From positions 7,888-71,887 of the forward strand of contig OY970382.1 in assembly GCA_963719425.1 (NCBI GenBank): a stretch of 64,000 nucleotides of DNA. The letters run 5' to 3'. A program made the translations under genes and the position numbers. The DNA is from an uncultured bacterium (GTDB lineage Bacteria; Patescibacteriota; Minisyncoccia; UBA6257; 2-01-FULL-56-20). Shown piece by piece: positions 3,340 to 28,508 of this stretch (positions within the stretch are counted from its first letter, which is position 1; every line of letters begins with the position of its first letter). The notes beneath the pieces are model-generated. The model saw only the letters and a list, made by a program, of their open reading frames with translations, searched no databases and was not told the DNA's origin.

Positions 3340-3990
3340 TTATCCCCTGGGCACTCGGAGCTGGTTGATAAGCCAAAGCACCTCCTGCGTCATACCATCA
3401 ATCCCACCCGGAGGGATGACGGGACCCTTTGTTGTCATGATCACGTACAGCGGCCGATCCATAATGAATGGCTCCATTGGGATGTTCGTGCCGTTGTCTT
3501 TTGAGAATCCCTCCCCGAGTTCGGCTGCCCCGAGCATCAGCAATCCCTCAAGCTTCTCCTTGGTGAGGCCATACCGTTCGGGCCCGCCAGTGAAAACGGC
3601 GTAGAAGTAAGCTCTCCGCACATCAGGCATGAGTATCTTCCATCCTTCCTTCGGACGTGCCGGATCAAGGAGGGGCTTTGCATAATGCCGAGCTTCGGCT
3701 TCCATGAGCGCAATAGCCACGCTATTCTCTAAAGCATCTTTCCCGAAGCTAACCCGTACCTGCGAGGTGCCATTCCTAAGTGAATCGTACTGGTGCGAGT
3801 AACCAACCACTTGATCGGCTAGAGTTAGATTGCCCTTCCTCATCTCGTTCACGAGAAATTGGACGTGGGCAACCCTTTGCTTGTCTTCTCTGGCCTTTTG
3901 GTATTTCAGCAAGGCGGGAAAGCCGATGATGTAGGTGGCAATGACGAAAATCACCAGGACAATACTTGCGACTACACCCTTCTTTCGCAT
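3340..3990 (-). CDS. Hypothetical membrane-anchored protein
   Basis: Start chosen at MRKKGVVASIVLVIFVIATYII (N-terminal TM anchor); no recognisable family. Confidence 0.5.
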   Translation of the reverse strand: MRKKGVVASIVLVIFVIATYIIGFPALLKYQKAREDKQRVAHVQFLVNEMRKGNLTLADQVVGYSHQYDSLRNGTSQVRVSFGKDALENSVAIALMEAEARHYAKPLLDPARPKEGWKILMPDVRRAYFYAVFTGGPERYGLTKEKLEGLLMLGAAELGEGFSKDNGTNIPMEPFIMDRPLYVIMTTKGPVIPPGGIDGMTQEVLWLINQLRVPRG

Positions 3991-4126
3991 GTTCTTTTTC
4001 TCCTCTCGGTTTAGTAGGTTTCCGATCCTGTGGGGTATTTTGAGCAACAAGGACCTTATACATAATAGCATTTATAATAACATATGTCAAGCCGGAATAA
4101 AACAGGCCTGTTTTTGGCTAAAAGCC

Positions 4127-4159
4127 AAAAGTGTTCGAAAATTGTCCAGGCTCGTGCAC
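4127..4159 (+). promoter_or_regulatory. Conserved intergenic motif, copy 3 (AAAAGTGTTCGAAAATTGTCCAGGCTCGTGCAC)
   Basis: Motif alignment; lies about 20 nt upstream of a TATTAT-like -10 and 70 nt upstream of the dCMP deaminase gene. Confidence 0.55.
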
Positions 4160-4820: not shown

Positions 4821-5897
4821 ATGGCGGAAGATTATAAGACGAGATTGAATGAGCTTTTGACGACGTGCGCGAAGCAGAGCGCTTCCGATTTGCACCTCGC
4901 GGTCGGACGGCGGCCGACATTACGTATTGACGGCACCCTTGTGCCGCTTCAGAAGGAGCCTATTATGACGCCCGAGGTTGCGGAAGGCATCATTTCGGAG
5001 CTTACCACCACGGAGCAGAGGGAGAGACTTATTACCCAGCGGCAGCTTGACCTCGCCTATAGTTTTGAGGACAAAGCGCGGTTCCGTGTGAATGTCTATT
5101 ACCAGCGCGGCTACCTCGCGGCAGCGCTACGCCTCGTGCCCGCGCGCATCAGGACGATTGAGGAATTGAACCTCCCGCCCCTTCTCCACGATTTCAGCAA
5201 ACTGTCGCAGGGATTCGTCCTCGCCGTAGGTCCCGCAGGACACGGGAAGTCATCAACGCTCGCGGCAGTCCTTGACGAAGTGAACCACACCCGGGCCGAC
5301 CACATCATTACCATTGAGGATCCGGTTGAATATCTTTTTACGCAGGATAAATGCATCGTTTCACAGCGCGAAATAGGAAGCGATGCAGTGAGCTTTCATA
5401 GCGCCCTGCGCACCGTTCTGCGGCAGGACCCGGACGTCATCATGATCGGCGAAATGCGCGACACTGTTTCCATTTCTACCGCAATGACGGCAGCGGAAAC
5501 AGGGCACCTGGTATTTTCCACGCTGCACACGAACTCCGCGTCGCAGACGATCGATCGCATTATTGATTCTTTTCCGGCTGAGCAGCAGGGGCAGGTGACC
5601 TCCCAGCTCGCGGCGACCTTGGTCGCGATTGTTTCTGAGCGTCTCTTGCCGAGAATCTCCGGTGGCCGCATCCCATCCATGGAAATTATGATTGTGAATC
5701 CGGCCATTCGGAACCTTATCCGCGAGCGGAAAACGTATCAGGTTGATCTCGTGATTGAGACTTCGTTGCAGGAGGGCATGGTGACGCTGAACCGCTCGCT
5801 TGTGAATCTCATAAAAAACAAGGAAGTAACGCTCGAGAATGCCGAACTCTATTCATTGAATCCGGCGGAACTTCGGATTCTCCTTGAACGGACATAA
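4821..5897 (+). CDS. pilT: Twitching-motility / pilus retraction ATPase
   Basis: Walker A GPAGHGKSST; PilT-type Asp and His boxes; ~358 aa hexameric secretion ATPase architecture. Start at MAEDYK. Confidence 0.85.
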   Translation: MAEDYKTRLNELLTTCAKQSASDLHLAVGRRPTLRIDGTLVPLQKEPIMTPEVAEGIISELTTTEQRERLITQRQLDLAYSFEDKARFRVNVYYQRGYLAAALRLVPARIRTIEELNLPPLLHDFSKLSQGFVLAVGPAGHGKSSTLAAVLDEVNHTRADHIITIEDPVEYLFTQDKCIVSQREIGSDAVSFHSALRTVLRQDPDVIMIGEMRDTVSISTAMTAAETGHLVFSTLHTNSASQTIDRIIDSFPAEQQGQVTSQLAATLVAIVSERLLPRISGGRIPSMEIMIVNPAIRNLIRERKTYQVDLVIETSLQEGMVTLNRSLVNLIKNKEVTLENAELYSLNPAELRILLERT

Positions 5898-16600: not shown

Positions 16601-17962
16601 TTATTTCAATTTTCGGACAAGCGTTTTGAATTGTTCGCCGCGGTCGGCGTAGTTCTTAAACTGATCAAAGCTCGCCGCGCCGGGAGAGAACAGCACGACC
16701 GGCCGCTTTGATGCGGTCAGCGCTTTTTTTGCGGTTGCTTCGGCGGCCCGGTAGGCGGCCTGCGCGGCAGCGCGAAGATCCGGGACAAGTTCAATAGCGC
16801 GATAATCTGGCGCGCGCCGGACCGGCGCCTCGCGCGTCGCCTTGATTGCGCGCCATATCTTTCTTCGGTTTTGTCCAAAAAGCACCACGCGAACCACGCG
16901 TGTTTTCTTGAGCGCACGCGCAAGCGGCGCATAGTCCAGATTTTTGTCCCTCCCGCCCGCAATGAGAACTATGGGATGATCGGGGAATGCTCGCACGGCG
17001 GCGGCGGTCGTCTGCGGGTTCGTTGAGGCGGAATCGTTATAGAACGCGATGCCATTGACCTTCCGCACGAATTCAAGGCGGTGCTCGTTGCCCGGGAACG
17101 ATTTTACAACGCGTGTGATCGCGCGGTTCGGGACGCCGAGGGCGTGTGCGACGGCCACTGCCATTACGGCGTTTTTGAAATTATGGTATCCGGGCATCGC
17201 AAGGTCTTCCGGTGCGAAAAGGCCGAAGCGCTTTTCGTCCACGGCGGTCTTTTTGCCGCGCCCATGGCGCGCCGTCCACGCGCTCCTACGGTTGTTCTTG
17301 AAGAAGAAAATTTTGTCGCGCGGCGACTGGAATCGTGCAATGTTCGTCTTTACCCCGTAATATTCCTTGAGATTTTTGTGCGCATCCTGGTGATCAGGGA
17401 ACGTATCAAGAACGACGGCGATCGGCGGGGAAGTTTTGAGGTCCTGGAGTTGGAAACTGGAAAGCTCGAGGATGACAAGCGAGTTTTTTTTAAGCTTCGG
17501 CAGGATCTCAAGCGCCGGCGTGCCCACGTTACCTGCAAGATAGACGTCGCGATGAGCGGCCTTCAATACCTTATAGAGGAGCGTCGCTGTTGTGCCTTTG
17601 CCTTTGGTCCCCGTGATGCCGATGATCTTCGCCGGGCAGTATTCAAAAAAGAGGGCCATCAAGCTGGAAAATGGCACGCCCCTTCGCCGCGCGCGCACGA
17701 GCGCGGGGAGCATATAGGGAACGCCCGGGGAGCGCAGCATAAGGTCAAAATCCTCAAGGCGTGCGAGATAATTTCTGCCGAGCCGCGCGCGAACCCCCTT
17801 CGGAACCTTTATGGCTTCGTTTTTGTCTAAGATCCAAATTTCCGCGCCACGGAACCCGCGCCTAGCTTTTATAAACTTCAAGAGCGATTGCCCCTCGCGA
17901 CCAAAACCAAGAAGCCCAACCTTCATTATTGTTATCATCACACCCTTCGTCTTTTTTGACAA
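16601..17962 (-). CDS. murD: UDP-N-acetylmuramoylalanine--D-glutamate ligase
   Basis: N-terminal Rossmann GLLGFGREG; Mur ligase P-loop GITGTKGKGTTATL; Mur ligase C-terminal domain. Confidence 0.75.
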   Translation of the reverse strand: MSKKTKGVMITIMKVGLLGFGREGQSLLKFIKARRGFRGAEIWILDKNEAIKVPKGVRARLGRNYLARLEDFDLMLRSPGVPYMLPALVRARRRGVPFSSLMALFFEYCPAKIIGITGTKGKGTTATLLYKVLKAAHRDVYLAGNVGTPALEILPKLKKNSLVILELSSFQLQDLKTSPPIAVVLDTFPDHQDAHKNLKEYYGVKTNIARFQSPRDKIFFFKNNRRSAWTARHGRGKKTAVDEKRFGLFAPEDLAMPGYHNFKNAVMAVAVAHALGVPNRAITRVVKSFPGNEHRLEFVRKVNGIAFYNDSASTNPQTTAAAVRAFPDHPIVLIAGGRDKNLDYAPLARALKKTRVVRVVLFGQNRRKIWRAIKATREAPVRRAPDYRAIELVPDLRAAAQAAYRAAEATAKKALTASKRPVVLFSPGAASFDQFKNYADRGEQFKTLVRKLK

Positions 17963-17985
17963 TGTATTAAAAAGTTATTTAGAAT
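17956..17985 (+). promoter_or_regulatory. Candidate promoter TTGACA-N18-TAGAAT facing the GC-rich structured region and tRNA-Met
   Basis: TTGACA at 17956-17961 and TAGAAT at 17980-17985; divergent from the murD start. Confidence 0.4.
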
Positions 17986-17994
17986 TGGTTGACG

Positions 17995-18240
17995 GGCGTT
18001 TTGTGTCAATCGCGCGGGAGGGTTGGGAATGGTTTTCCGGGGAGCCCCATAAGCTCCCGAAGCCGGTCCGATTCCGGCCCCCGCAACAAGCTTCGATCTT
18101 CCTCCCGAAAGGGACGGCGTCGCTCGCTCCGGCGGGCGAGCGCGCCTCGCTCTCGCCACGGCAGGCGACCTAGAGGTCGCCTCAAGCCGCCGTGGCTCCG
18201 AGGCGCCCTTTCGGAAGGAAGATCTCCGCTATGTTGTTCG
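17995..18240 (+). ncRNA. GC-rich highly structured region (candidate ncRNA or tRNA leader)
   Basis: Long-range 19-bp pairing of GATCTTCCTCCCGAAAGGG (18095-18113) with CCCTTTCGGAAGGAAGATC (18206-18224); internal hairpins GGAGC..GCTCC and GGCGACC-TAGA-GGTCGCC; no coding signal. Confidence 0.3.
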
Positions 18241-18279
18241 CTTTACGGGGAAGCGGGAAAATAATATAGTAGTGCTTGA

Positions 18280-18351
18280 GCCGGCGTAGCTCAGTGGCAG
18301 AGCAGGGCTTTCATAAGGCCAAGGTCACAGGTTCGAATCCTGTCGCCGGCA
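18280..18351 (+). tRNA. tRNA-Met (CAT) elongator type (or tRNA-Ile2 if lysidinylated)
   Basis: Acceptor GCCGGCG/CGCCGGC with G1:C72; D-arm GCTCAGTGGCAGAGC; anticodon loop TTCATAA; T-loop TTCGAAT; CCA not encoded. Confidence 0.75.
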
Positions 18352-18366
18352 CCCAATCCGTGCCCC

Positions 18367-18395
18367 TTGACACGGTTTTGATTGTTTGGTATACT
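18367..18395 (+). promoter_or_regulatory. Near-consensus promoter TTGACA-N17-TATACT
   Basis: TTGACA at 18367-18372 and TATACT at 18390-18395; shares CTTGACACGGTTTTG with the promoter at 23367. Confidence 0.55.
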
Positions 18396-18440
18396 TTAAG
18401 CATAAATGTCAGCGTTGTATGATAATAAGAAATAAGAAGT

Positions 18441-19253
18441 ATGAAACCAGAACAAATCCCGGGTCCCCGGGAGAAAACACCAGCCGTTCAGGGCGGAGAG
18501 AAAAGACCTGACCAGGAGCAGGTCATTGATGTCGGAGAACTGATGAAACAACCCGAGTATGCAAGGGCGGTAGCGGCTAGGAAACAGGAACAAAATTATA
18601 TCCCTCTGCGGGGCACCATGGAGATGTTGGGAGTGAACCCGGAGGATGCGCTAAAGAAGAATCAAGTTGAAGGACCCACATACCGTGAAATTGCCGGGCA
18701 GTACCTTGCGGCGGCTGCGGAAAGGGTTAGCAGTCTTAAGGGCAGGATTGGAGGTTTTATTAATAACGCGGGGCATAAGTTAGTGTCCTTCGGTTTGGAG
18801 ATGCAGGGGGGAACGTTGGGGGAAAGGCGTGAAAATCAGACCGGTAAAGAAACCGGAGAAAAACCGTCCACCAATGTCCGATTCTTCAGCAAAGCACAAA
18901 TTGATGTTGCGCTGGGGAGGACTAATCCTCAGCGCCCGGAGGTAGCAGCGGCTGGACAGCAGGGAGAACGGATGGGGGGACCAGCGGAGAAGGTGAGAGG
19001 AAGGTATGGCGAAGTAGTGGATGCCGGCATGGCCCAGTACGCTGCCCTTATGCAACGGGCGGACGGTGCGCAAACCGCGCTCCAAACGGCAGCTGAGTTA
19101 GCACGCCGAGGGCAAGAGCGAAAAGCGCGCGAAATGGGGAAGGCCGAGGCCCATAGAGAATATGGCAAACGACTGCTTGATATGATGATGGCTCGGGCTC
19201 GCCTTGCCGAGGTCAAGCTTCGGCTGCGGCAGCTGGAAGGAGCAGCTGCTTAA
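18441..19253 (+). CDS. Hypothetical protein (charged, coiled-coil-rich)
   Basis: 270-aa ORF downstream of a strong promoter; no recognisable motifs. Confidence 0.45.
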   Translation: MKPEQIPGPREKTPAVQGGEKRPDQEQVIDVGELMKQPEYARAVAARKQEQNYIPLRGTMEMLGVNPEDALKKNQVEGPTYREIAGQYLAAAAERVSSLKGRIGGFINNAGHKLVSFGLEMQGGTLGERRENQTGKETGEKPSTNVRFFSKAQIDVALGRTNPQRPEVAAAGQQGERMGGPAEKVRGRYGEVVDAGMAQYAALMQRADGAQTALQTAAELARRGQERKAREMGKAEAHREYGKRLLDMMMARARLAEVKLRLRQLEGAAA

Positions 19254-19721: not shown

Positions 19722-20864
19722 ATGACTGCCGAAATCGTTATCACATCACCGGAAGAGAAATCCCTCCAGGCGGAGATTGAGAGGAGAAGCGACGCGGAAG
19801 GGGCACGCATGCTGCGGTTCATGCGGATGCCGGACCTTTCGCGCACGAAAGGGAGCCCGATTTGCGAAATTGTGCAGCGTATCGTGGCACTCCCGGATTT
19901 CAAGACATTCGACGTTGTGCAGGTGCCGGAGATTGTGCCCGCGCGGGAGAGTTTTGATCTTTTTAATTTTCCGCCCGACCATCCCGCCCGCAGCCGCTCC
20001 GACACGTATTACGTGAACAACGACTACATTTTGCGCACGCACACCACGATCATGTGGTATTACTGGCTCGGCCTTTCCAAGGTGAAAGAGAAAATGCAGC
20101 GTGGGGAAGCAGTGGGCGCCTTGTGCTACGGCAAGGTATATCGCAAGGACGAGATAGACCGTGAGCACATGAACATATTCCACCAGATGGACGGTTGGTA
20201 TCTTTGTCGCCGAGAGGAAAAAGAGATAGGCCTGGAAGACCTGAAAGCCGTTTTGGTAAAGATCGCGCAGGCAATTTACGGGCCGGACATCAAGTATCGT
20301 TTCAATAAAGATACGTTTCCCTACACGGATCCGAGCTTGGAGATGGAAATAGAAGTGGGGGGGCGCTGGGTGGAGGTCTTGGGCAGTGGCGTCGTACAGC
20401 CGAAGGTTTTGGACAACTTCGGCGTTGATTCTCGCGTTTGGAATGGCTGGGCGTTTGGCTTCGGCCTGGAGCGGCTTGCCATCTTGAGCATGCAGCTTCC
20501 CGACATCCGGCTCTTGTGGTCGCGGGACCTGCGCGTCACGCGCCAGCTCCGCCTTGGGAATGCTTATAAAGAGGTAAGTAAATTCCCTCCCGTCAGCCGC
20601 GATATTTCGTTCGTCGTGGGCGCGGGCTTCGTGCCCAATAATTATTTTGATGTTATCCGCGACATCGGTGGCGACCTTGTGGAAGAGGTGGCATTGCTTG
20701 ATAAGTATGAAAATCCGGAAAAATTCGGCAAAGGGAAAACAAGCTATACCTTCCGCGTGGTCTATCGCGGGAACGACAGGACGCTCACAAACGCGGAGGT
20801 GGACGTGATACATCACGCGCTTGAAGGAAAGACTGCCGACGAGTTCGGCGGAACGGTACGGTAG
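19722..20864 (+). CDS. pheS: Phenylalanine--tRNA ligase alpha-type catalytic subunit fused to a C-terminal FDX-ACB anticodon-binding domain
   Basis: Class II motifs (FPYTDPSLEMEI; motif 3 GWAFGFGLERLAILSM); ~95-aa C-terminal extension KFPPVSRDISFVV...YRGNDRTLTNAEVD resembling the PheT / mitochondrial PheRS FDX-ACB domain. Confidence 0.75.
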   Translation: MTAEIVITSPEEKSLQAEIERRSDAEGARMLRFMRMPDLSRTKGSPICEIVQRIVALPDFKTFDVVQVPEIVPARESFDLFNFPPDHPARSRSDTYYVNNDYILRTHTTIMWYYWLGLSKVKEKMQRGEAVGALCYGKVYRKDEIDREHMNIFHQMDGWYLCRREEKEIGLEDLKAVLVKIAQAIYGPDIKYRFNKDTFPYTDPSLEMEIEVGGRWVEVLGSGVVQPKVLDNFGVDSRVWNGWAFGFGLERLAILSMQLPDIRLLWSRDLRVTRQLRLGNAYKEVSKFPPVSRDISFVVGAGFVPNNYFDVIRDIGGDLVEEVALLDKYENPEKFGKGKTSYTFRVVYRGNDRTLTNAEVDVIHHALEGKTADEFGGTVR

Positions 20865-20886
20865 TATTTCCGTTATAGTTAAGGAG

Positions 20887-22344
20887 ATGGCAAAACTTCT
20901 CGCACCGAAAGAAGTTTCTGAAATCGCCCTCACGCTCGCAAAGGCGGGATTTGAGGCGTATCTTGTCGGTGGCTGCGTGCGGGACATGCTCTTGGGCCGC
21001 GAGCCTAAGGATTGGGATGTGGCGACGAACGCGCGGCCGGAGGAGATCCAGAAACTTTTTCCGGAGAGCGTGTACGAGAATTCGTTCGGCACAGTGGGCG
21101 TGAAAACCGAATCGGAGGATCCAAAGCTCGCGGTGATTGAAGTGACGACCTATCGGATTGAGGGGAGATATACGGATAAGCGGCATCCGGATGAGGTAAA
21201 GTTCGCGAAGACGATTCAGGAAGATTTGGCCCGCCGCGATTTTACGGTGAATGCGCTCGCGATGAATTTGAAAGGAGAAGTGTACGATCCATTCGGAGGG
21301 AAGAATGATTTGAAGAGCAGGATAATTCGCACGGTGGGGAGTCCGGAGGAGCGGTTCAATGAAGACGCGCTACGCCTCATGCGCGCGGTGCGCTTTGCGG
21401 TGGAATTGGATTTTGAGATCGAGATGAACACGCGCCGCGCAATTGAGAAGCAATCGCCTGAGCTTGAGATGATTGCGAAGGAACGCGTCCGCGACGAACT
21501 CGTGAAGATAATGGAGACGCCGCAGGCGGCAAAGGGGATCATTCTTTTGGAAGAACTCGGTTTGCTGCAGTATGTTTTGCCGGAACTGCGCGAGGGGCTG
21601 GGCGTCGGGCAGAATCTGCACCATATCTATACGGTATTTGAGCATAGCGTCCGATCGCTGGATTACGCCGCGAAGCAGGATTATCCGCTCGTGATCCGGA
21701 TGGCGGCGCTCTTGCACGATGTCGGTAAACCGCGCGCGAAACAGGGCGAGGGCCGCAATGCTACTTTCTATCAGCACGAATTCATCAGTGCGAAAATGAC
21801 CGCAAAGGCGCTGGACCGCCTGCGGTTCTCAAAGGAATTTATAGAAGAGGTGACGCACCTTGTTCGTTACCACATGTTCTATTACAACGTGGGGGAGGTC
21901 TCCGAGCGGGGGGTGCGCAGGTTTCTTGCGCGCGTGGGGCCGGAAACCGTGCCAGACCTCTTCAAGGTGCGCGAGGCCGACCGCATTGGCTCCGGCGCGC
22001 CAAAGGCCACGCCATACAAGAATCGCCACCTGATGTTCATGATTGAAAAAGTGAAGAATGACCCGGTTTCGCCGAAGATGCTCAAAGTGAACGGCGATGA
22101 CGTGATGGAGATATTGCGTATCCCGCCGGGCCACCGCGTTGGGTGGGTGCTCGCCATATTGCTTGAAGAGGCGCTGGACGATCCTGAAAAGAACATTAAA
22201 GAAAACTTGACAGTGCGCGTCACGGAGCTGGGGAAACTCTCCGACGCGGAGTTAAAAAAGCTTGCCGAGAAAGCCCGCACTACGAAAGACGAATTTGAGG
22301 AAGGGCTGGAAGAAGAAATAAAAAAGAAGTATTTTGTAAAGTAA
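20887..22344 (+). CDS. cca: CCA-adding tRNA nucleotidyltransferase with HD domain
   Basis: Head motif GGCVRDMLLGREPKDWDVAT; HD motif HDVGK. Start at MAKLLAP, preceded by AAGGAG. Confidence 0.8.
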   Translation: MAKLLAPKEVSEIALTLAKAGFEAYLVGGCVRDMLLGREPKDWDVATNARPEEIQKLFPESVYENSFGTVGVKTESEDPKLAVIEVTTYRIEGRYTDKRHPDEVKFAKTIQEDLARRDFTVNALAMNLKGEVYDPFGGKNDLKSRIIRTVGSPEERFNEDALRLMRAVRFAVELDFEIEMNTRRAIEKQSPELEMIAKERVRDELVKIMETPQAAKGIILLEELGLLQYVLPELREGLGVGQNLHHIYTVFEHSVRSLDYAAKQDYPLVIRMAALLHDVGKPRAKQGEGRNATFYQHEFISAKMTAKALDRLRFSKEFIEEVTHLVRYHMFYYNVGEVSERGVRRFLARVGPETVPDLFKVREADRIGSGAPKATPYKNRHLMFMIEKVKNDPVSPKMLKVNGDDVMEILRIPPGHRVGWVLAILLEEALDDPEKNIKENLTVRVTELGKLSDAELKKLAEKARTTKDEFEEGLEEEIKKKYFVK

Positions 22345-23512: not shown

Positions 23513-24279
23513 ATTCGTGCAAACTTCGTAATTTCACAGAAGATTCATCAGTGATTGGTTTGTAACAACCAGTTGCTGGGAGAATCTCTCCGAATTGTAG
23601 AGTCGGGGAAGGAATAGTAGAAGCTCTGCATCATGTTTTTTGCCATCGCATTTTGGCAAATCCAATTTCTTACGATCGGCAGAGCAAAAAGTCAGCATTG
23701 GGATGGTTGGCATTTCCGTCGCAAGACGGATCTCAATAAGGGCGAATGGTGGATGCCTTGACTAGAAAAGGCGATGAAGGACGTGGCGTAGCGACGATAC
23801 GCCTCGGGGAGGTGCGTAGCAACCTGTGATCCGGGGATGTCCGAATGGGGAAACCTAATTACGTAAACCGTAATTGTTTCGGCGCAAGCCGATTCGCGTA
23901 CCTGGCGAAGTAAAACATTTCAGTAGCCAGAGGAACAGAGAACAAATCAGTTTATTCCCTTAGTATCGGCGAGAGAAAAGGGAAGGGCCCAAACTAAGGT
24001 TCTGATTTTTTCGGAATCTTGGGGTAATAAGAGAAAGACGCTGTTTTGCCGGTCGCCGAGCTTCCGTATAATCGGGACTTCGGCGATTGGTGAAATAAGG
24101 AGGAGTCAAAAAATCGTTGGTTAGCCAAAGCCGGCTGGAAAGCCGGGGCCAAAGCGGGTGATAGCCCCGTAGGCGAAAACTTACGATCTCCTTAGTTTTT
24201 CAACTTGAGTACTTCGGGGTAAATAAGTCCCGAAGGAATTTGCCTGTACTATCAGGCAAGGCTAAATACTTTTCTAGAT

Positions 24280-24316
<37 letters not shown>

Positions 24317-25100
24317 CAGGCCGGCGAGGCCGTTGAAATAGAACCTGAAACCATTTGTCTACAAGGAATTGAAGCTCCAAGTGCGGATGCAGCAATGCGT
24401 TCGCGCGGGGCGACAATGTGCCTATTGAAGAATGAGCCAACGACTTATCTTGTGTTGCTTGTCTAAACGCGCATAGCGTGCAGGCATAGCGAAAGCGAGT
24501 CTTAATAGGGCGTACATCCCACTCAATTTATTGGGTGGGATCGCAGCACAAGGTAGACCCGAAGCCAGATGAGCTTGCCTTGGCCAGGGTGAACCTCGGA
24601 GAAATCCGAGGGGAGGCCCGAACTGGTGAGTTGTTCAAAACTCTCGGATGAGCTGAGGTAAGGAGTGAAAAGCTAATCGAATTTGGTAATAGCTGGTTCT
24701 CTCCGAAATAGTTTTAGGACTAGCGGTGCGGAAAATCTTGCGGGGGTAGAGCACTGGATGATCTGTAAAGGCCGAAAGGCCGACAGATCAATCAAACTCC
24801 GAATACCGCAGGCGGATCCCGCACTAGTCAGACTGCGGGGGCTAAGCTCCGTGGTCGCGAGGGGAAGAGCCCAGACCGTTATCTAAGGTCCCCAAATCCA
24901 TGCTAAGTGTGAAAGGTAGTCATCACCCATAGACAGATAGGAGGTTGGCTTAGAGGTAGCCATCCTTTAAAGAGTGTGTAACAACTCACTATTCGACGGG
25001 TGGTGGCGCCGAAAATGTACCGGGGCTAAGCATGGTACCGAAGATACGGATTCGCTGACTTCATTGAGGAAAAATTTGTTCTTTGATTTGCGGCTTTGTG

Positions 25101-25173
25101 TGACGCGTAGCTCAGTTGGTAGAGCATCCGACTCTTAATCGGAAGGTCGCGGGTTCGAACCCCGTCGCGTCCA
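25101..25173 (+). tRNA. tRNA-Lys (CTT) embedded in the 23S IVS
   Basis: D-arm GCTCAGTTGGTAGAGC; anticodon arm TCCGA-CTCTTAA-TCGGA; T-loop TTCGAAC; acceptor has a T1:C72 mismatch; CCA not encoded. Confidence 0.6.
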
Positions 25174-25210
25174 CCCACCGTCTTTGATGGTGGAGAGAAA
25201 GCTCATGTGT

Positions 25211-25355
25211 CGGAGCGTAGCACAAGGGTAGTGCGCCTAGATGATCTTAAGTCTCCGGACCGTCAAAAGGATTTATGAATGACCTTTTGGCCCGCCGGCA
25301 GCGCGAGGTCTGTGCAACTAGGAGGTTGCAGGTTCAAGTCCTGTCGCTCCGACCA
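25211..25355 (+). tRNA. tRNA-Ile (GAT)-like gene interrupted by a ~70-nt insertion in the anticodon loop
   Basis: Acceptor CGGAGCG/CGCTCCG plus A73 and CCA; D-arm GCACAAGGGTAGTGC; anticodon stem CCTAG (25236-40) pairs with CTAGG (25318-22); loop ends ATGAT...AA would reconstitute ATGATAA; T-arm GCAGG-TTCAAGT-CCTGT. Confidence 0.4.
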
Positions 25356-26116
25356 AAAGTTTTGAGCGAGGCGTGTCGACACTATACTGTCGCGCGCCTC
25401 GCCTCCTCAATGAAGTCAGTGAGTGGTAGGAGAGCATTCGTACTGCAGTGAAGCCCGACCCGCGAGGGCGAGTGGAGCGATACGAAGAGAAAATGTTGGC
25501 ATGAGTAACCACAATCCCAATGAGAAATTGGAACCCCGAAAATCCAAGGTTTCCGTGGCACTGGCAATCAACCACGGGTTAGGCGATCCTAAGGCAATGG
25601 CGAAAGCCGCAGCTGATGGCATGCTGGTTAATATTCCAGCCCTCCTTTGTGATTATCCGTCGTGTGCGAAGGAAATAGGTGCGTATGCCTTATTGGTTTG
25701 GTATCGCTGGTCCGAAGTTCAACAAGGATCGGCGGAAGGTGAGGAATTTACCTCATCAACACGCATGAAGAGCCTTCCAAGAAAAGCGCGGCGGTTACGT
25801 TGCAGAGGATCCGTACCGTAAACCGACACAGGTGGATAGGGCGAGAAGCCCAAGGGGAACGAGTGATTTGCCTCTAAGGAACTCGGCAAAAAAGCGGCCG
25901 TACGTTTGCTATATGGCCTGATCTTCCTTAACCGGAAGATCCGCAGCGAAAGTTTCTCTGGCGACTGTTTACCAAAAACACAGCTCCCTGCTAACTCGCA
26001 AGAGGATGTATAGGGGGTGACGCCTGACCGATGCGAGAAGGTCAAGGTTGGGAGTGCCGTGCCGCAAGGTGCGGGACCCACTGACTCAAGCCCTCGTCAA
26101 TGTCAGCGATAACTAT

Positions 26117-26832
26117 AGACATAACGATTGTAGTTATAAAATCTGGCTATATGCTGGAAACTCTGTGTATCTGACATTACGGTATTTAATGAAAATTTTA
26201 TCCAAATTTAATTTTCATGTGGTACCGTGAAAATATGATCAGTGCAGACAATCAGCAGGAAAGGCTTTGTGGCATTGGTTGGTATCTTGCCGGCTTCGTT
26301 GATGGAGAGGGAAGTTTTAATACTTCTCTCCGAAAAGGAAATGGGCACCGCCTCGGATGGCAGGTGCAATTAACCTTCAATGTAGCCCAAAGGGATATCA
26401 GCAACCTGGAATTGTTAAAACAATATCTAGGATGCGGACGATTACAATATCGTAAAGATGGAGTACATTACTTCGTCGTGAGCGATTACCGTTCGATTAT
26501 TGATCGCGTAATACCGTTCTTTGAGAAATTCACGTTTTTCTCCGCTTCCAAGAAGAAGAATTTTTCTCTATTCAAGCAAATTGCATTTCTGATGGGTCAA
26601 GGAAAACATCTTGATCCGGCGGGATTGCAAGAAATTATTGCAATTAGGGAATATTTGAACGAGGGAAGAGGAAGGACGCGGAAATATAACAAAGACGATA
26701 TCACGATCGACCACAAAGAATCCTCAGAGACTATACGCCGGAGTTCATCAATGGTGATGGACAAGATATAGTCCGATCTCATGGGCGACCATGAGGATCC
26801 CGCTTAAAAACGAGCGAGTGATAACGTAAAAG
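26117..26832 (+). mobile_element. Group I intron at the 23S L1917-equivalent site, carrying a LAGLIDADG homing endonuclease gene
   Basis: 5' exon ends AACTAT(U); intron ends in G; the flanking exons AACTAT|AATCGTTCTAAGGT align to E. coli AACUAU|AACGGUCCUAAGGU. Confidence 0.6.
26235..26771 (+). CDS. LAGLIDADG homing endonuclease (single-motif, I-CreI/I-CeuI-like)
   Basis: Motif LAGFVDGEGSF; ~180 aa; lies inside the rRNA intron. Alternative start at 26217. Confidence 0.8.
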   Translation: MISADNQQERLCGIGWYLAGFVDGEGSFNTSLRKGNGHRLGWQVQLTFNVAQRDISNLELLKQYLGCGRLQYRKDGVHYFVVSDYRSIIDRVIPFFEKFTFFSASKKKNFSLFKQIAFLMGQGKHLDPAGLQEIIAIREYLNEGRGRTRKYNKDDITIDHKESSETIRRSSSMVMDKI

Positions 26833-26846
26833 AATCGTTCTAAGGT

Positions 26847-27083
26847 GGAATTGGTACTGCCTTAGTAAAACCTAACTATATGCTGGAACACCCGCGCATA
26901 TCAGAGTACCGAAAGGTGACAATCTCTGATCGAAGCGGACAATCAGCAGGAAACTTCACGGGAAGGATCCTCAGAGACTACACGTTAGGATCGCCGCAAG
27001 GCGATAAGATATAGTCCGAACTGCATAACGATATGCAGAGCCAAGCAGAAATGTTTTGGCCAACAAAAGTTGTAACACGTTCG
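26847..27083 (+). mobile_element. Short ORF-less group I intron at the L1931-equivalent site; a paralogue of the L1917 intron with the endonuclease gene deleted
   Basis: 5' exon ends TAAGGT(U); intron ends in G before AGCGCAATTCC (E. coli AGCGAAAUUCC). Shares blocks CTATATGCTGGAA, GACAATCAGCAGGAAA, ATCCTCAGAGACTAYACG and AGATATAGTCCGA with intron 1 in the same order. Confidence 0.5.
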
Positions 27084-27780
27084 AGCGCAATTCCTTTTCG
27101 GGTAAGTTCCGAAGCGCACGAAAGGCGTAACGACTGGAGAACTGTCTCGGAGGCAAGCTCGGTGAAAATGCGATTCCCGTGAAGACGCGGGATACCTGCA
27201 GCGGGACGAAAAGACCCCGGAAGCTTTACTGCAGCTTGGTATTGTCTTTAGGATCTTGATGCGTAGCGTAGTGGTGAGGATTTGAAGCCGCGCTCTCGGG
27301 TGCGGTGGATCCGACAATGAAACAGCCATCTTTAAGATTTTAAAGACTAACTGATGTGGAAGTGCGCAAGCATAAACCATATCAAGACAGTGCTTGGTAG
27401 GCAGTTTAAATGGGGCGTTTTCCTCCAAAAGAGTAACGGAGGAGTTTATTAAGGTCGGCTTAGCCCGGATGGAAATCGGGCAGGACGTGCAAACGCAAAA
27501 GCCGGCTTGACTGCGAGACCTACAAGTCGAGCAGGTGCGAAAGCAGAAGTTAGTGACCCGACGGCTATGTTCATGCGTGTTTTACTACGTGCATGAATTC
27601 TTGATAGAAAGGCCGGAGACACCGGATAAAAGCTACTCCGGGGATAACAGGCTGGTGAAGTCCGAGAGTTCCTATCGACGACTTCGCTCGGCACCTCGAT
27701 GTCGGCTCGCGACAGCGCCCGGGTGGAGAAGCTCGGAAGCGTTTGGCTGTTCGCCAATTAAAGTCGCACGTGAGCTGGGT

Positions 27781-28102
27781 GAGTGAACAACACTTCAAAT
27801 GAGCCCAGCAATCCTTTACACGAGGCTCGATTGTGTCCCAATCGAGAGAAAACAAAAAAGGAAAATAAATTGACTCATAACGGCGAAGTCCTCAGAAAGG
27901 ATAATGCCGTGGGAAGGTTGCGGTTTTTTTCCAGGCGCTCTTTTTGCGCCAAGAGAATCGTGAACCCCCGTAACGACTTGATCGTTTATGCGATCGGAGC
28001 GAAAAGATGGGAAGATCGTCTTCTCGCTAAAACGTCAGTCCTTGCGATTGGAATAGCAAGGAAAGGAATAGTCTAGTGCTCTTAGCAATAAGAGGAACAT
28101 TG
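27781..28102 (+). mobile_element. ORF-less group I intron at the L2593-equivalent (I-CreI target) site of 23S
   Basis: 5' exon ends GAGCTGGGT(U); intron ends in G; 3' exon resumes TCAGACCGTCGTGAGACAGG (E. coli UUAGAACGUCGUGAGACAG). Confidence 0.55.
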
Positions 28103-28134
<32 letters not shown>

Positions 28135-28252
28135 TGCTGCAGGCGTTTACACTTGAGGGGAGTTGGCATTAGTACGAGAGGACTTTGCTGAACCTACCTC
28201 TGGTCTACCGGCTTTGGTACCAACTGAACTGCCGGGTAGCTATGTAGGGAAG

Positions 28253-28286
<34 letters not shown>

Positions 28287-28508
28287 ACCCCAAGATTAGG
28301 TGTGTGTGATTTCGTGGAAGACTACCACGTTGATAGGCTCCAGGTGTAAGGCCCGCAAGGGTTTCAGCCGAGGAGTACTAATAATCCCGCCAACCATCCC
28401 AATGCTGACTTTGTTGTGTTCGTTTCGCCGTCAAAACTCTGAAGCGAACACTCTCTGCTAACAAAAAGGAGTGAGTGCGCTATAACTTATAGCGCGCGAA
28501 ACGACCTT

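Follow-up and report, generated by a model that had tools for sequence, protein, structure and literature searches.

A non-canonical initiator-type tRNA and its Y-shaped RNA trailer in Paceibacteria

This study concerns a GC-rich region next to murD in a 64,000-nt stretch of contig OY970382.1 from an uncultured bacterium (the entire 64-kb stretch is referred to as the window). The region was found to hold two small transcription units: a promoter followed by an initiator-type tRNA and a Y-shaped RNA, and then a promoter followed by tRNA-Met. The Y-shaped domain is a conserved RNA structure under selection, with covariation in its helices, and it represents an RNA family that is absent from Rfam. 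Judged by sequence comparison, it is invariably located at the 3' end of a transcription unit, in most cases the tRNA-fMet unit. We tentatively favour the view that it is a module, specific to this lineage, that forms the 3' end of the initiator-tRNA transcript, takes part in its processing or protects it.

The original prediction for this region was a highly base-paired non-coding RNA of ~250 nt with its own promoter, which could be a housekeeping RNA or a large leader of the downstream tRNA-Met; an Rfam scan and a covariation analysis in related genomes were proposed as checks. The region is indeed non-coding, structured and promoter-driven, but it is not a single RNA, since its first 74 nt correspond to an initiator-type tRNA gene.

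Results

The region is structured, non-coding and preceded by a conserved promoter

As anticipated, the GC content (calculated over 150 nt at a time) rises from 0.43-0.51 in the flanks to 0.67-0.71 within 18000-18249. In agreement with the predicted high degree of base pairing, folding of 17986-18279 gave -156.9 kcal/mol for the plus strand (z = -6.0), with 0/200 shuffled sequences folding as well; the minus strand folds comparably (z = -5.9). Mechanical open reading frames (ORFs) of 59-120 aa overlap the region. A coding sequence is contradicted by the differences among relatives, which consist of 1-nt indels and paired compensatory changes, and the earlier statement that there is no plausible ORF was thereby borne out.

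The three complementary stretches that had been pointed out were all recovered, and each could be given a place. The GGAGC..GCTCC hairpin is the anticodon stem of the tRNA (18041-18045 with 18053-18057), the GGCGACC-TAGA-GGTCGCC hairpin (18163-18180) is the tip of helix P3b of the Y-shaped RNA, and the inverted repeat, with 19-nt arms that are 95% complementary and 92 nt apart, is its helix P1 (18 Watson-Crick pairs and one C/A mismatch). The coordinates of all features are collected in Table 1.

The upstream promoter, TTGACA-N18-TAGAAT, was correctly placed by the original prediction and agrees with the consensus at 11/12 positions. In at least 15 other loci, all from related Paceibacteria of the Candidate Phyla Radiation (CPR), a TTGACAAT...TAnAAT promoter precedes the orthologous tRNA at the same spacing; its boxes have been kept, and the sequence between and 3' of them has diverged. 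From the position of the boxes, transcription of this first unit would start near 17992. Loci from other genomes that were used for comparison, mostly from related Paceibacteria, are denoted by L-numbers; the 5' leader sequence is identical in L001 and L002.

The first 74 nt specify a non-canonical initiator-type tRNA

The CAU anticodon of the tRNA (18048-18050) sits in the 7-nt loop CCCAUAA (18046-18052) and is invariant across all aligned homologues. C1 (18013) stands opposite A72 (18085), and the discriminator A73 is nucleotide 18086. The unpaired 1:72 position (C1xA72) is a formylation determinant of bacterial initiator tRNAs, and it is present in 11/11 sequences of the odd type as well as in canonical relatives. 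The tRNA shares with Escherichia coli tRNA-fMet the acceptor 3' strand (CCCCGCAA / CCCCGC, then A72 and A73), the CAU anticodon and C1xA72.

In other respects this tRNA differs from bacterial tRNA-fMet. Its D stem has 6 bp (18024-18029 with 18034-18039) and its D loop 4 nt (UGGU), a combination known from tRNA-Sec, the acceptor 5' strand carries an extra A18019 (equivalently, a 7:66 mismatch), and C is found at positions 33 and 55. The T stem has 5 bp and the T loop reads UCCGAUU. CCA is not encoded, as CAAG directly follows the tRNA. Three consecutive G-C pairs in the anticodon stem (29:41, 30:40, 31:39) are a hallmark of initiator tRNAs; here the corresponding pairs are A-U, G-C and C-G, with only G30-C40 and C31-G39 being of the G-C type. 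Several canonical orthologues of the clade, such as that of L014, likewise lack the three G-C pairs, and we therefore treat their absence as a lineage trait.

These deviations are accompanied by a failure of standard tRNA detection. The sequence scored below the thresholds of ARAGORN and of the Rfam tRNA model RF00005: the latter did not match it at the gathering score, and ARAGORN missed it even at 80% of its thresholds, calling only the downstream tRNA-Met in this region. The best Rfam match, covering 18014-18084, was to the tRNA-Sec model (33 bits, E = 1e-4, under the 47-bit cut-off). This model scores best because of the 6-bp D stem closed by the 4-nt UGGU loop.

The identity of the gene follows from its relatives. 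The 74-nt sequence is 75-96% identical to murD-adjacent sequences in ~22 related loci, even where MurD identity is down to ~50%. In L013, L014, L016, L017, L020 and L023 the murD-adjacent orthologue is called tRNA-Met(CAU) by ARAGORN, and these sequences align continuously with that of the window. The L014 orthologue resembles a textbook tRNA-fMet, and the 3' end of the window tRNA is close to that of canonical tRNA-fMet genes. The aberrant 5' third is a property of the sub-clade that comprises the window together with L001-L004, L011, L013, L018, L024, L026, L082, L084, L088 and L091-L095. Across 11 distinct sequences, 98.8% of the alignment cells in the cloverleaf are paired, compared with 41-62% in slid controls, and compensatory changes at five pairs are spread over all four stems. 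Sequence comparison thus identifies the window tRNA as an orthologue of tRNA-fMet. We class 18013-18086 as a non-canonical initiator-type tRNA, for which methionylation, formylation and use in the P site are predicted.

In the clade alignment (L001-L029 and L082-L096), C33 is common (loop CCCAUAA) and position 55 is U, C or G (UUCGA, UCCGA, UGCAA). To our knowledge, positions 33 and 55 are almost invariant in tRNAs elsewhere in biology. A gene for a PolyA_pol/HD nucleotidyltransferase of the CCA-adding type lies at 20821-22344, 2.5 kb downstream, which fits post-transcriptional addition of CCA. Our literature searches on CPR initiator tRNAs, Parcubacteria RNA motifs and Patescibacteria terminators returned nothing relevant.

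A Y-shaped RNA with strong covariation follows the tRNA

The Y-shaped RNA begins 0 nt after A73, and we therefore regard it as co-transcribed with the initiator tRNA. Its consensus architecture is a three-way junction with a 2-bp P0, a 3x3 pyrimidine loop, a P1 of 17-25 bp (19 bp in the window, 25 bp in L035), the J12 dinucleotide AC and a P2 with a bulged U. P3a varies in a compensatory manner from CUC/GAG to AUC/GAU and UUC/GAA next to a conserved UC/UCC internal loop. P3b is highly variable in length, its long forms carry a conserved 3' bulge, (A)CCRAG, and the element ends in a pyrimidine-rich tail, CUCCGCU. The loops that are conserved in sequence are UC/UCC in P3, UUC/UCC between P0 and P1, the ACCAAG bulge and the AC of J12.

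On its own, the Y element (18087-18233) folds at -94.9 kcal/mol (z = -8.1). In an alignment of 13 sequences fitted to the covariance model described below, 85.4% of the cells are paired and both sides have changed in 42 of the 48 pairs. The covariation score was 0.48, as compared to 0.09-0.14 for slid controls, and 0/500 shuffles reached this value. Because the alignment had been fitted to the model, RNAalifold was run as an independent test, and it recovered P0, P1, P3a and P3b. The covariation analysis that had been proposed thus supports both the tRNA cloverleaf and the Y fold.

The proposed Rfam scan gave nothing at gathering thresholds in the region; at E<=10, with all 4227 families, it returned only the sub-threshold tRNA-Sec match and chance matches to miRNA and sRNA families. 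Even at these permissive thresholds, no family matched the Y element over 17800-18450 of the window or in L082, L084, L088 and L010.

Several known motifs were considered by eye. A kink-turn in the P3 internal loop was rejected, as the required GA is absent from the non-bulged strand, and domain IV of the signal recognition particle (SRP) RNA, the Ro-binding helix of Y RNA, the hammerhead core and the R'/R'' boxes of integron attC sites do not fit. A T-loop reading of UCCGA competes with the P3a pairs. Pairings of the P2 loop with the tail and of the ACCAAG bulge with the 5' flank were discarded, since conservation across lineages is lacking. In every copy, G-U pairs would allow the tail to bind the tRNA 5' acceptor strand, and descent of the tail from a duplicated tRNA 3' end is equally possible.

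The Y element is found at transcript ends, mostly that of tRNA-fMet

A homologous structured element was found right after A73 in seven relatives, and a pattern scan of metagenomes, with the tRNA end as anchor, yielded 9 loci, 3 of which were new members. The covariance model, built from ten sequences and scoring the window at 143.9 bits, detected copies outside the model set in L009 (86 bits), L015 (a second copy, 59 bits), L019 (39 bits) and L035 (60 bits), and a partial second copy in L012. The total in relatives is 15 copies, namely 14 full copies and one partial copy. A search of seven extra murD loci gave one more Y copy, and a second covariance model revealed no further copies in ~460 kb of related sequence. 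With the first model, in ~520 kb of control loci, mainly from outside the CPR, only the copy in L035, a Patescibacteria locus, and one chance match (E = 0.18) were detected. The window itself holds a single copy even with the search filters switched off, and no Y element was present in the viral contigs that were scanned.

Twelve full copies directly follow tRNA-fMet or its duplicated or decayed 3' fragment, and the partial L012 copy is likewise located after a tRNA 3' fragment. The two copies without a tRNA link lie between convergent genes: that of L019 begins at the stop codon of tyrS, and that of L035 exactly fills the 161-nt gap between gatA and an ORF of 303 aa. By a rough count, a Y element is found at about 1 in 3 tRNA-fMet 3' ends, as opposed to about 1 in 100 gene ends of other kinds, which points to an apparently genuine, though not exclusive, association with the initiator tRNA. 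In L093 and L094, simple hairpins of 22-27 bp followed by a T-run occupy the position of the Y element.

In L001, the closest relative (5693-5720; the same sequence in L085, L089 and L090), G-to-A changes in the P1 3' strand break the helix. They also give rise to a -35 box, TTGAGA, which lies 17 nt before the -10 box (TATAGT) of tRNA-Met, so that a structural arm has become part of a promoter. Tandem degenerate or partial copies were seen in L088 (~2440-2590), L012 (2071-2236) and L082 (1-54); in L088 the 3' half (UCCGAUA-N20-CUCCGCUA) is present three times. In L009 an inserted GIY-YIG gene (3748-4133) separates the tRNA from a repeated 19-nt tRNA 3' end (AAAATTCCCGCCCCCGCAA), and this insertion has displaced the native tRNA 3' end and the Y element downstream. 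Small GIY-YIG genes lie just 3' of tRNA-fMet not only in L009 but also in L007 (~400-800) and L096 (1730-1990), which suggests a free-standing GIY-YIG homing cassette directed at the initiator tRNA gene. In L092, the spacer that separates tRNA-fMet from tRNA-Met (542-2300) contains a HepT/MNT toxin-antitoxin pair, a Y1 (IS200-type) transposase and PRiA4_ORF3. From this gene content, the spacer is a variable island locus.

Discussion

A proposed 3'-end module of the initiator-tRNA transcript

In the reading that we tentatively favour, the upstream promoter would drive a primary transcript of ~240 nt consisting of the tRNA and the Y RNA, and the Y domain would act in cis as the 3'-end module of this transcript. 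The combined P0-P1 helix (~21-24 bp) would be the positional equivalent of the plain hairpin and T-run in sister lineages. It might bring about termination, protection against 3' exonucleases, or both, and it may also offer a double-stranded cleavage site of the RNase III type, for which P1 and P0 together have the length (about 20 bp or more, preserved by covariation). Since the gene itself does not specify CCA, an endonucleolytic cut after A73 would set the tRNA free, and the CCA-adding enzyme, whose gene lies 2.5 kb downstream, would complete its 3' end. The Y RNA would be left over as a very stable by-product. The loops that are conserved in sequence (UC/UCC, UUC/UCC, the ACCAAG bulge and J12 AC) would imply a specific binding partner, beyond the function of a simple hairpin.

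Three observations support a role at the 3' end. L093 and L094 have a near-identical tRNA with the simple hairpin and T-run at the same place, both copies that are not linked to a tRNA (L019 and L035) sit where a terminator is expected, and the downstream tRNA-Met has its own conserved promoter. Several other observations weigh against such a role. There is no consistent U-tract after the helix: the sequence is U-rich in the window, L014 and L010, and it is not in L084, L009 and L015 (after P0 it reads UAUGUUGUU in the window and UUUUAUUUUU in L014, and it is U-poor in L084 and L009). The element thus has the unit-end position and the stable helix of an intrinsic terminator together with a variable U-tract, and it is not called by a pattern scan for terminators. 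For a pure terminator or an RNase III stem, conservation of the P2 and P3 loops would be superfluous. The element is also dispensable, since L091-L095, with 68-72% MurD identity, have the near-identical odd tRNA without it. Finally, counts of G-U and A-C combinations (20 and 19, respectively) are uninformative on which strand is transcribed.

Alternative explanations

It is possible, if on the unlikely side, that the Y RNA is a new Paceibacteria-specific class, either a 3'-end handle recognised by a factor or a free-standing protein-binding RNA tied to initiator-tRNA synthesis. As a handle, it could be cleaved, for instance by RNase P, RNase Z or RNase III, and so define the 3' end of the initiator tRNA, in a manner like mascRNA/MALAT1. 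In either form, the Sec-like D arm, C33 and C55 would point to modified initiation or tRNA-modification machinery in reduced genomes. We are similarly doubtful of the idea that the Y RNA is itself the product, a stable protein-binding or trans-acting small RNA that uses the promoter and processing enzymes of the initiator tRNA, with its 5' end set by tRNA 3' processing. The constancy of internal loops and bulges in sequence while the helices turn over completely would be in line with this idea, as would the extreme stability of the fold, and the copies at mRNA 3' ends (L019 and L035) fit the genesis of small RNAs derived from 3' untranslated regions. Moreover, RtT RNA (PMC4986893) and 3'ETS-leuZ (PMC6191717) of E. 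coli show that spacers of tRNA operons can be functional RNAs. Such a product is, however, difficult to reconcile with the patchy distribution and the plain hairpin found instead in close relatives, with the decay of the P1 helix into a promoter in L001, and with the lack of an evident partner protein or target, no neighbouring gene being conserved across the copies.

The patchy distribution, with three kinds of site, could also reflect selfish or relic DNA: a low-copy or structure-dependent mobile element resembling a miniature inverted-repeat transposable element (MITE), or an integration scar at the tRNA-fMet 3' end, which would persist at transcript ends since insertions are tolerated there. 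In agreement with this, tandem or partial duplications each follow a tRNA 3' fragment (L012, L009, the second copy of L015, and L088), the sequence 3' of tRNA-fMet is a hot spot for insertions (GIY-YIG genes in L007, L009 and L096; HepT/MNT and the Y1 transposase in L092), and the tail CUCCGCU resembles the tRNA acceptor 3' strand CCCCGCA. We nevertheless consider it improbable. The helix arms covary rather than keep a sequence that a transposase would recognise, no target-site duplication was seen at L019 or L035, the unfiltered search gave one copy in the window and none was seen in the viral contigs scanned, and the L009 element is displaced native flank and not inserted DNA. On the same grounds (covarying arms, no target-site duplication at these two loci, a single copy in the window) the element was rejected as a MITE or a repeat derived from an insertion sequence (IS).

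The two proposals of the original prediction fared less well. A tRNA-Met precursor with a long 5' leader or spacer that is removed by processing would place the element upstream of that gene on the same strand, which is where it lies in the window, L001, L014 and L090. It is very improbable that the element is such a leader or spacer, as a conserved tRNA-Met promoter intervenes, the element is fixed to the tRNA-fMet 3' end with 0-nt spacing, and there is no downstream tRNA in L084, L010, L015, L009, L019 and L035. For a divergent 6S, SRP, RNase P or transfer-messenger RNA (tmRNA) only the size and GC richness speak, and we regard it as hardly conceivable: the Rfam scans of 17800-18450 and of four relatives returned none of these RNAs at E<=10, ARAGORN called no tmRNA in the region, and a three-way junction with a patchy distribution is unlike an essential RNA. 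The failure to recognise SRP RNA, RNase P RNA or tmRNA by eye was thus correct, and 6S RNA, which had been left as a candidate, is a rod with a central bubble rather than a three-way junction.

Comparison with known systems

According to PMC5371410, which cites Regnier and Grunberg-Manago (1989), RNase III of E. coli cuts a hairpin just 3' of the initiator tRNA gene metY and thereby frees the tRNA, a precedent for the role proposed here. The metY-rimP-nusA-infB transcript and the unit described here have in common a double-stranded structure directly 3' of an initiator tRNA, on one and the same transcript. There is no sequence relationship between them, and in E. coli a simple hairpin precedes an mRNA, whereas the Y element has a conserved three-way junction and sequence-conserved loops, is located at the end of the unit, and is a putative cleavage site. 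A second parallel is found in the tyrT repeats, each of which carries a tRNA 3' end. The trailer of the E. coli tyrT operon gives rise to RtT RNA, a structured RNA released from the tRNA-operon transcript (PMC4986893). The Y copies of L012 and L009 and the second copy of L015 each follow a tRNA-fMet 3' fragment and share with RtT RNA (RF00391) the location in a tRNA-operon trailer. The RF00391 model was unmatched at E<=10, and fold, tRNA and phylum all differ, so that this is an analogy and not membership.

The Correia/nemis elements of Neisseria are co-transcribed hairpin repeats and RNase III substrates. With such repeats and with intrinsic terminators, the Y element shares the terminator position (after a tRNA or between convergent genes) and a long closing helix; it differs in being branched and low-copy, in lacking a consistent U-tract and in having arms that covary. 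Dicistronic units of a tRNA and a small RNA include the plant tRNA-snoRNA genes, the Nanoarchaeum tRNA-C/D sRNA units and MALAT1-mascRNA, all with known functions and families. In these units, too, one promoter serves both a structured RNA and a tRNA or tRNA-like module, and tRNA-processing enzymes determine the ends of the structured RNA. The Y system differs from these in being bacterial (CPR) and in having no known function or family. Taken together, the Y trailer is grouped with tRNA-operon trailers and 3'-end structures.

Implications

Genomes of this Paceibacteria clade would seem to lack an initiator tRNA, as the real gene escapes both ARAGORN and the Rfam tRNA model, and this affects completeness estimates and metabolic inferences for the CPR. 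The initiator tRNA is among the most constrained molecules in biology. The variant described here, with its 6-bp D stem, 4-nt loop, bulged acceptor, C33 and C55, is conserved to lineages at ~50% MurD identity and represents a natural experiment on the requirements of formyltransferase, IF2, the P site and TruB-type modification. The Y trailer, in turn, is a testable case of RNA 3'-end formation and processing, with unusually clear covariation, in organisms with few RNases.

Feature coordinates and additional observations

Table 1. Positions of the features in and around the two transcription units, numbered from the first letter of the window.
Feature	Position	Strand	Remarks
Sigma-70-type promoter of the initiator-tRNA unit	17956..17985	+	-35 TTGACA 17956-17961; -10 TAGAAT 17980-17985
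Short 5' leader	17986..18012	+	Small hairpin GUUGAC...GUCAAU in the minimum-free-energy fold
Predicted non-canonical initiator tRNA (tRNA-fMet type)	18013..18086	+	74 nt
Y-shaped three-way-junction RNA	18087..18233	+	147 nt; trailer of the initiator tRNA
5' flank and P0	18087-18094	+	
P1, 5' strand	18095-18113	+	
J12	18114-18115	+	AC
P2 hairpin	18116-18146	+	Bulged U
J23	18147-18149	+	
P3a, 5' strand	18150-18152	+	CUC
P3 internal loop, 5' side	18153-18154	+	UC
P3b	18155-18196	+	3' bulge CAAGCC
P3 internal loop, 3' side	18197-18199	+	UCC
P3a, 3' strand	18200-18202	+	GAG
J31	18203-18205	+	
P1, 3' strand	18206-18224	+	
Tail	18225-18233	+	UCCGCUAUG
tRNA-Met promoter	18242..18270	+	TTTACG-N17-TATAGT, 9/12 consensus positions
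Canonical CAU-anticodon tRNA (tRNA-Met)	18280..18353	+	ARAGORN; Rfam tRNA model, 68.4 bits
Terminator-like hairpin and T-run ending the tRNA-Met unit	18358..18385	+	Overlaps the next promoter, 18367-18395

Upstream of the two units, MurD (16601-17926, minus strand) is 79-81% identical to the MurD of two metagenome-assembled genomes (MAGs) labelled Minisyncoccia or uncultured bacterium, and ~50-70% identical to many Liptonbacteria and Paceibacteria MAG proteins. The genome is of the Paceibacteria (Liptonbacteria/Minisyncoccia) type within the CPR/Patescibacteria. The -10 box of the tRNA-Met promoter stops 9 nt short of the tRNA. An equal promoter geometry was found in L094 (TTTACG-N17-TATATT) and in L001 (TTGAGA-N17-TATAGT), where the -35 box lies within the degenerated P1 3' strand. 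The tRNA itself may be elongator Met or tRNA-Ile2. The terminator-like hairpin behind it (CCGTGCCCCTTGACACGG and the T-run) includes the -35 box of the following promoter, TTGACA-N17-TATACT, which agrees with the consensus at 11/12 positions and has a TG extension. This promoter lies upstream of an ORF of 270 aa (18441-19253) of low complexity, with only a weak DprA_N match.

The window contains no 16S rRNA gene. The 23S rRNA gene (23728-28401) measures 4674 nt against a model of 2925 nt. Its region 24700-25700 spans only model positions 856-1505, which leaves ~350 nt extra, and a strong call for tRNA-Lys(CUU) (67.9 bits, 25101-25175) falls inside this insertion. A second tRNA-like sequence with a long internal insert was recognised by eye directly after it (~25210-25347; acceptor GUCGGAGC/GCUCCGAC-CA, T arm GCAGGUUCAAGUCCUGU). 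Such tRNAs embedded in an rRNA insertion would be unusual. The 23S gene also contains a group I intron (26796-27038, 64.5 bits), and an ORF of 184 aa (26217-26771) just upstream of the intron's catalytic core may encode a homing endonuclease.

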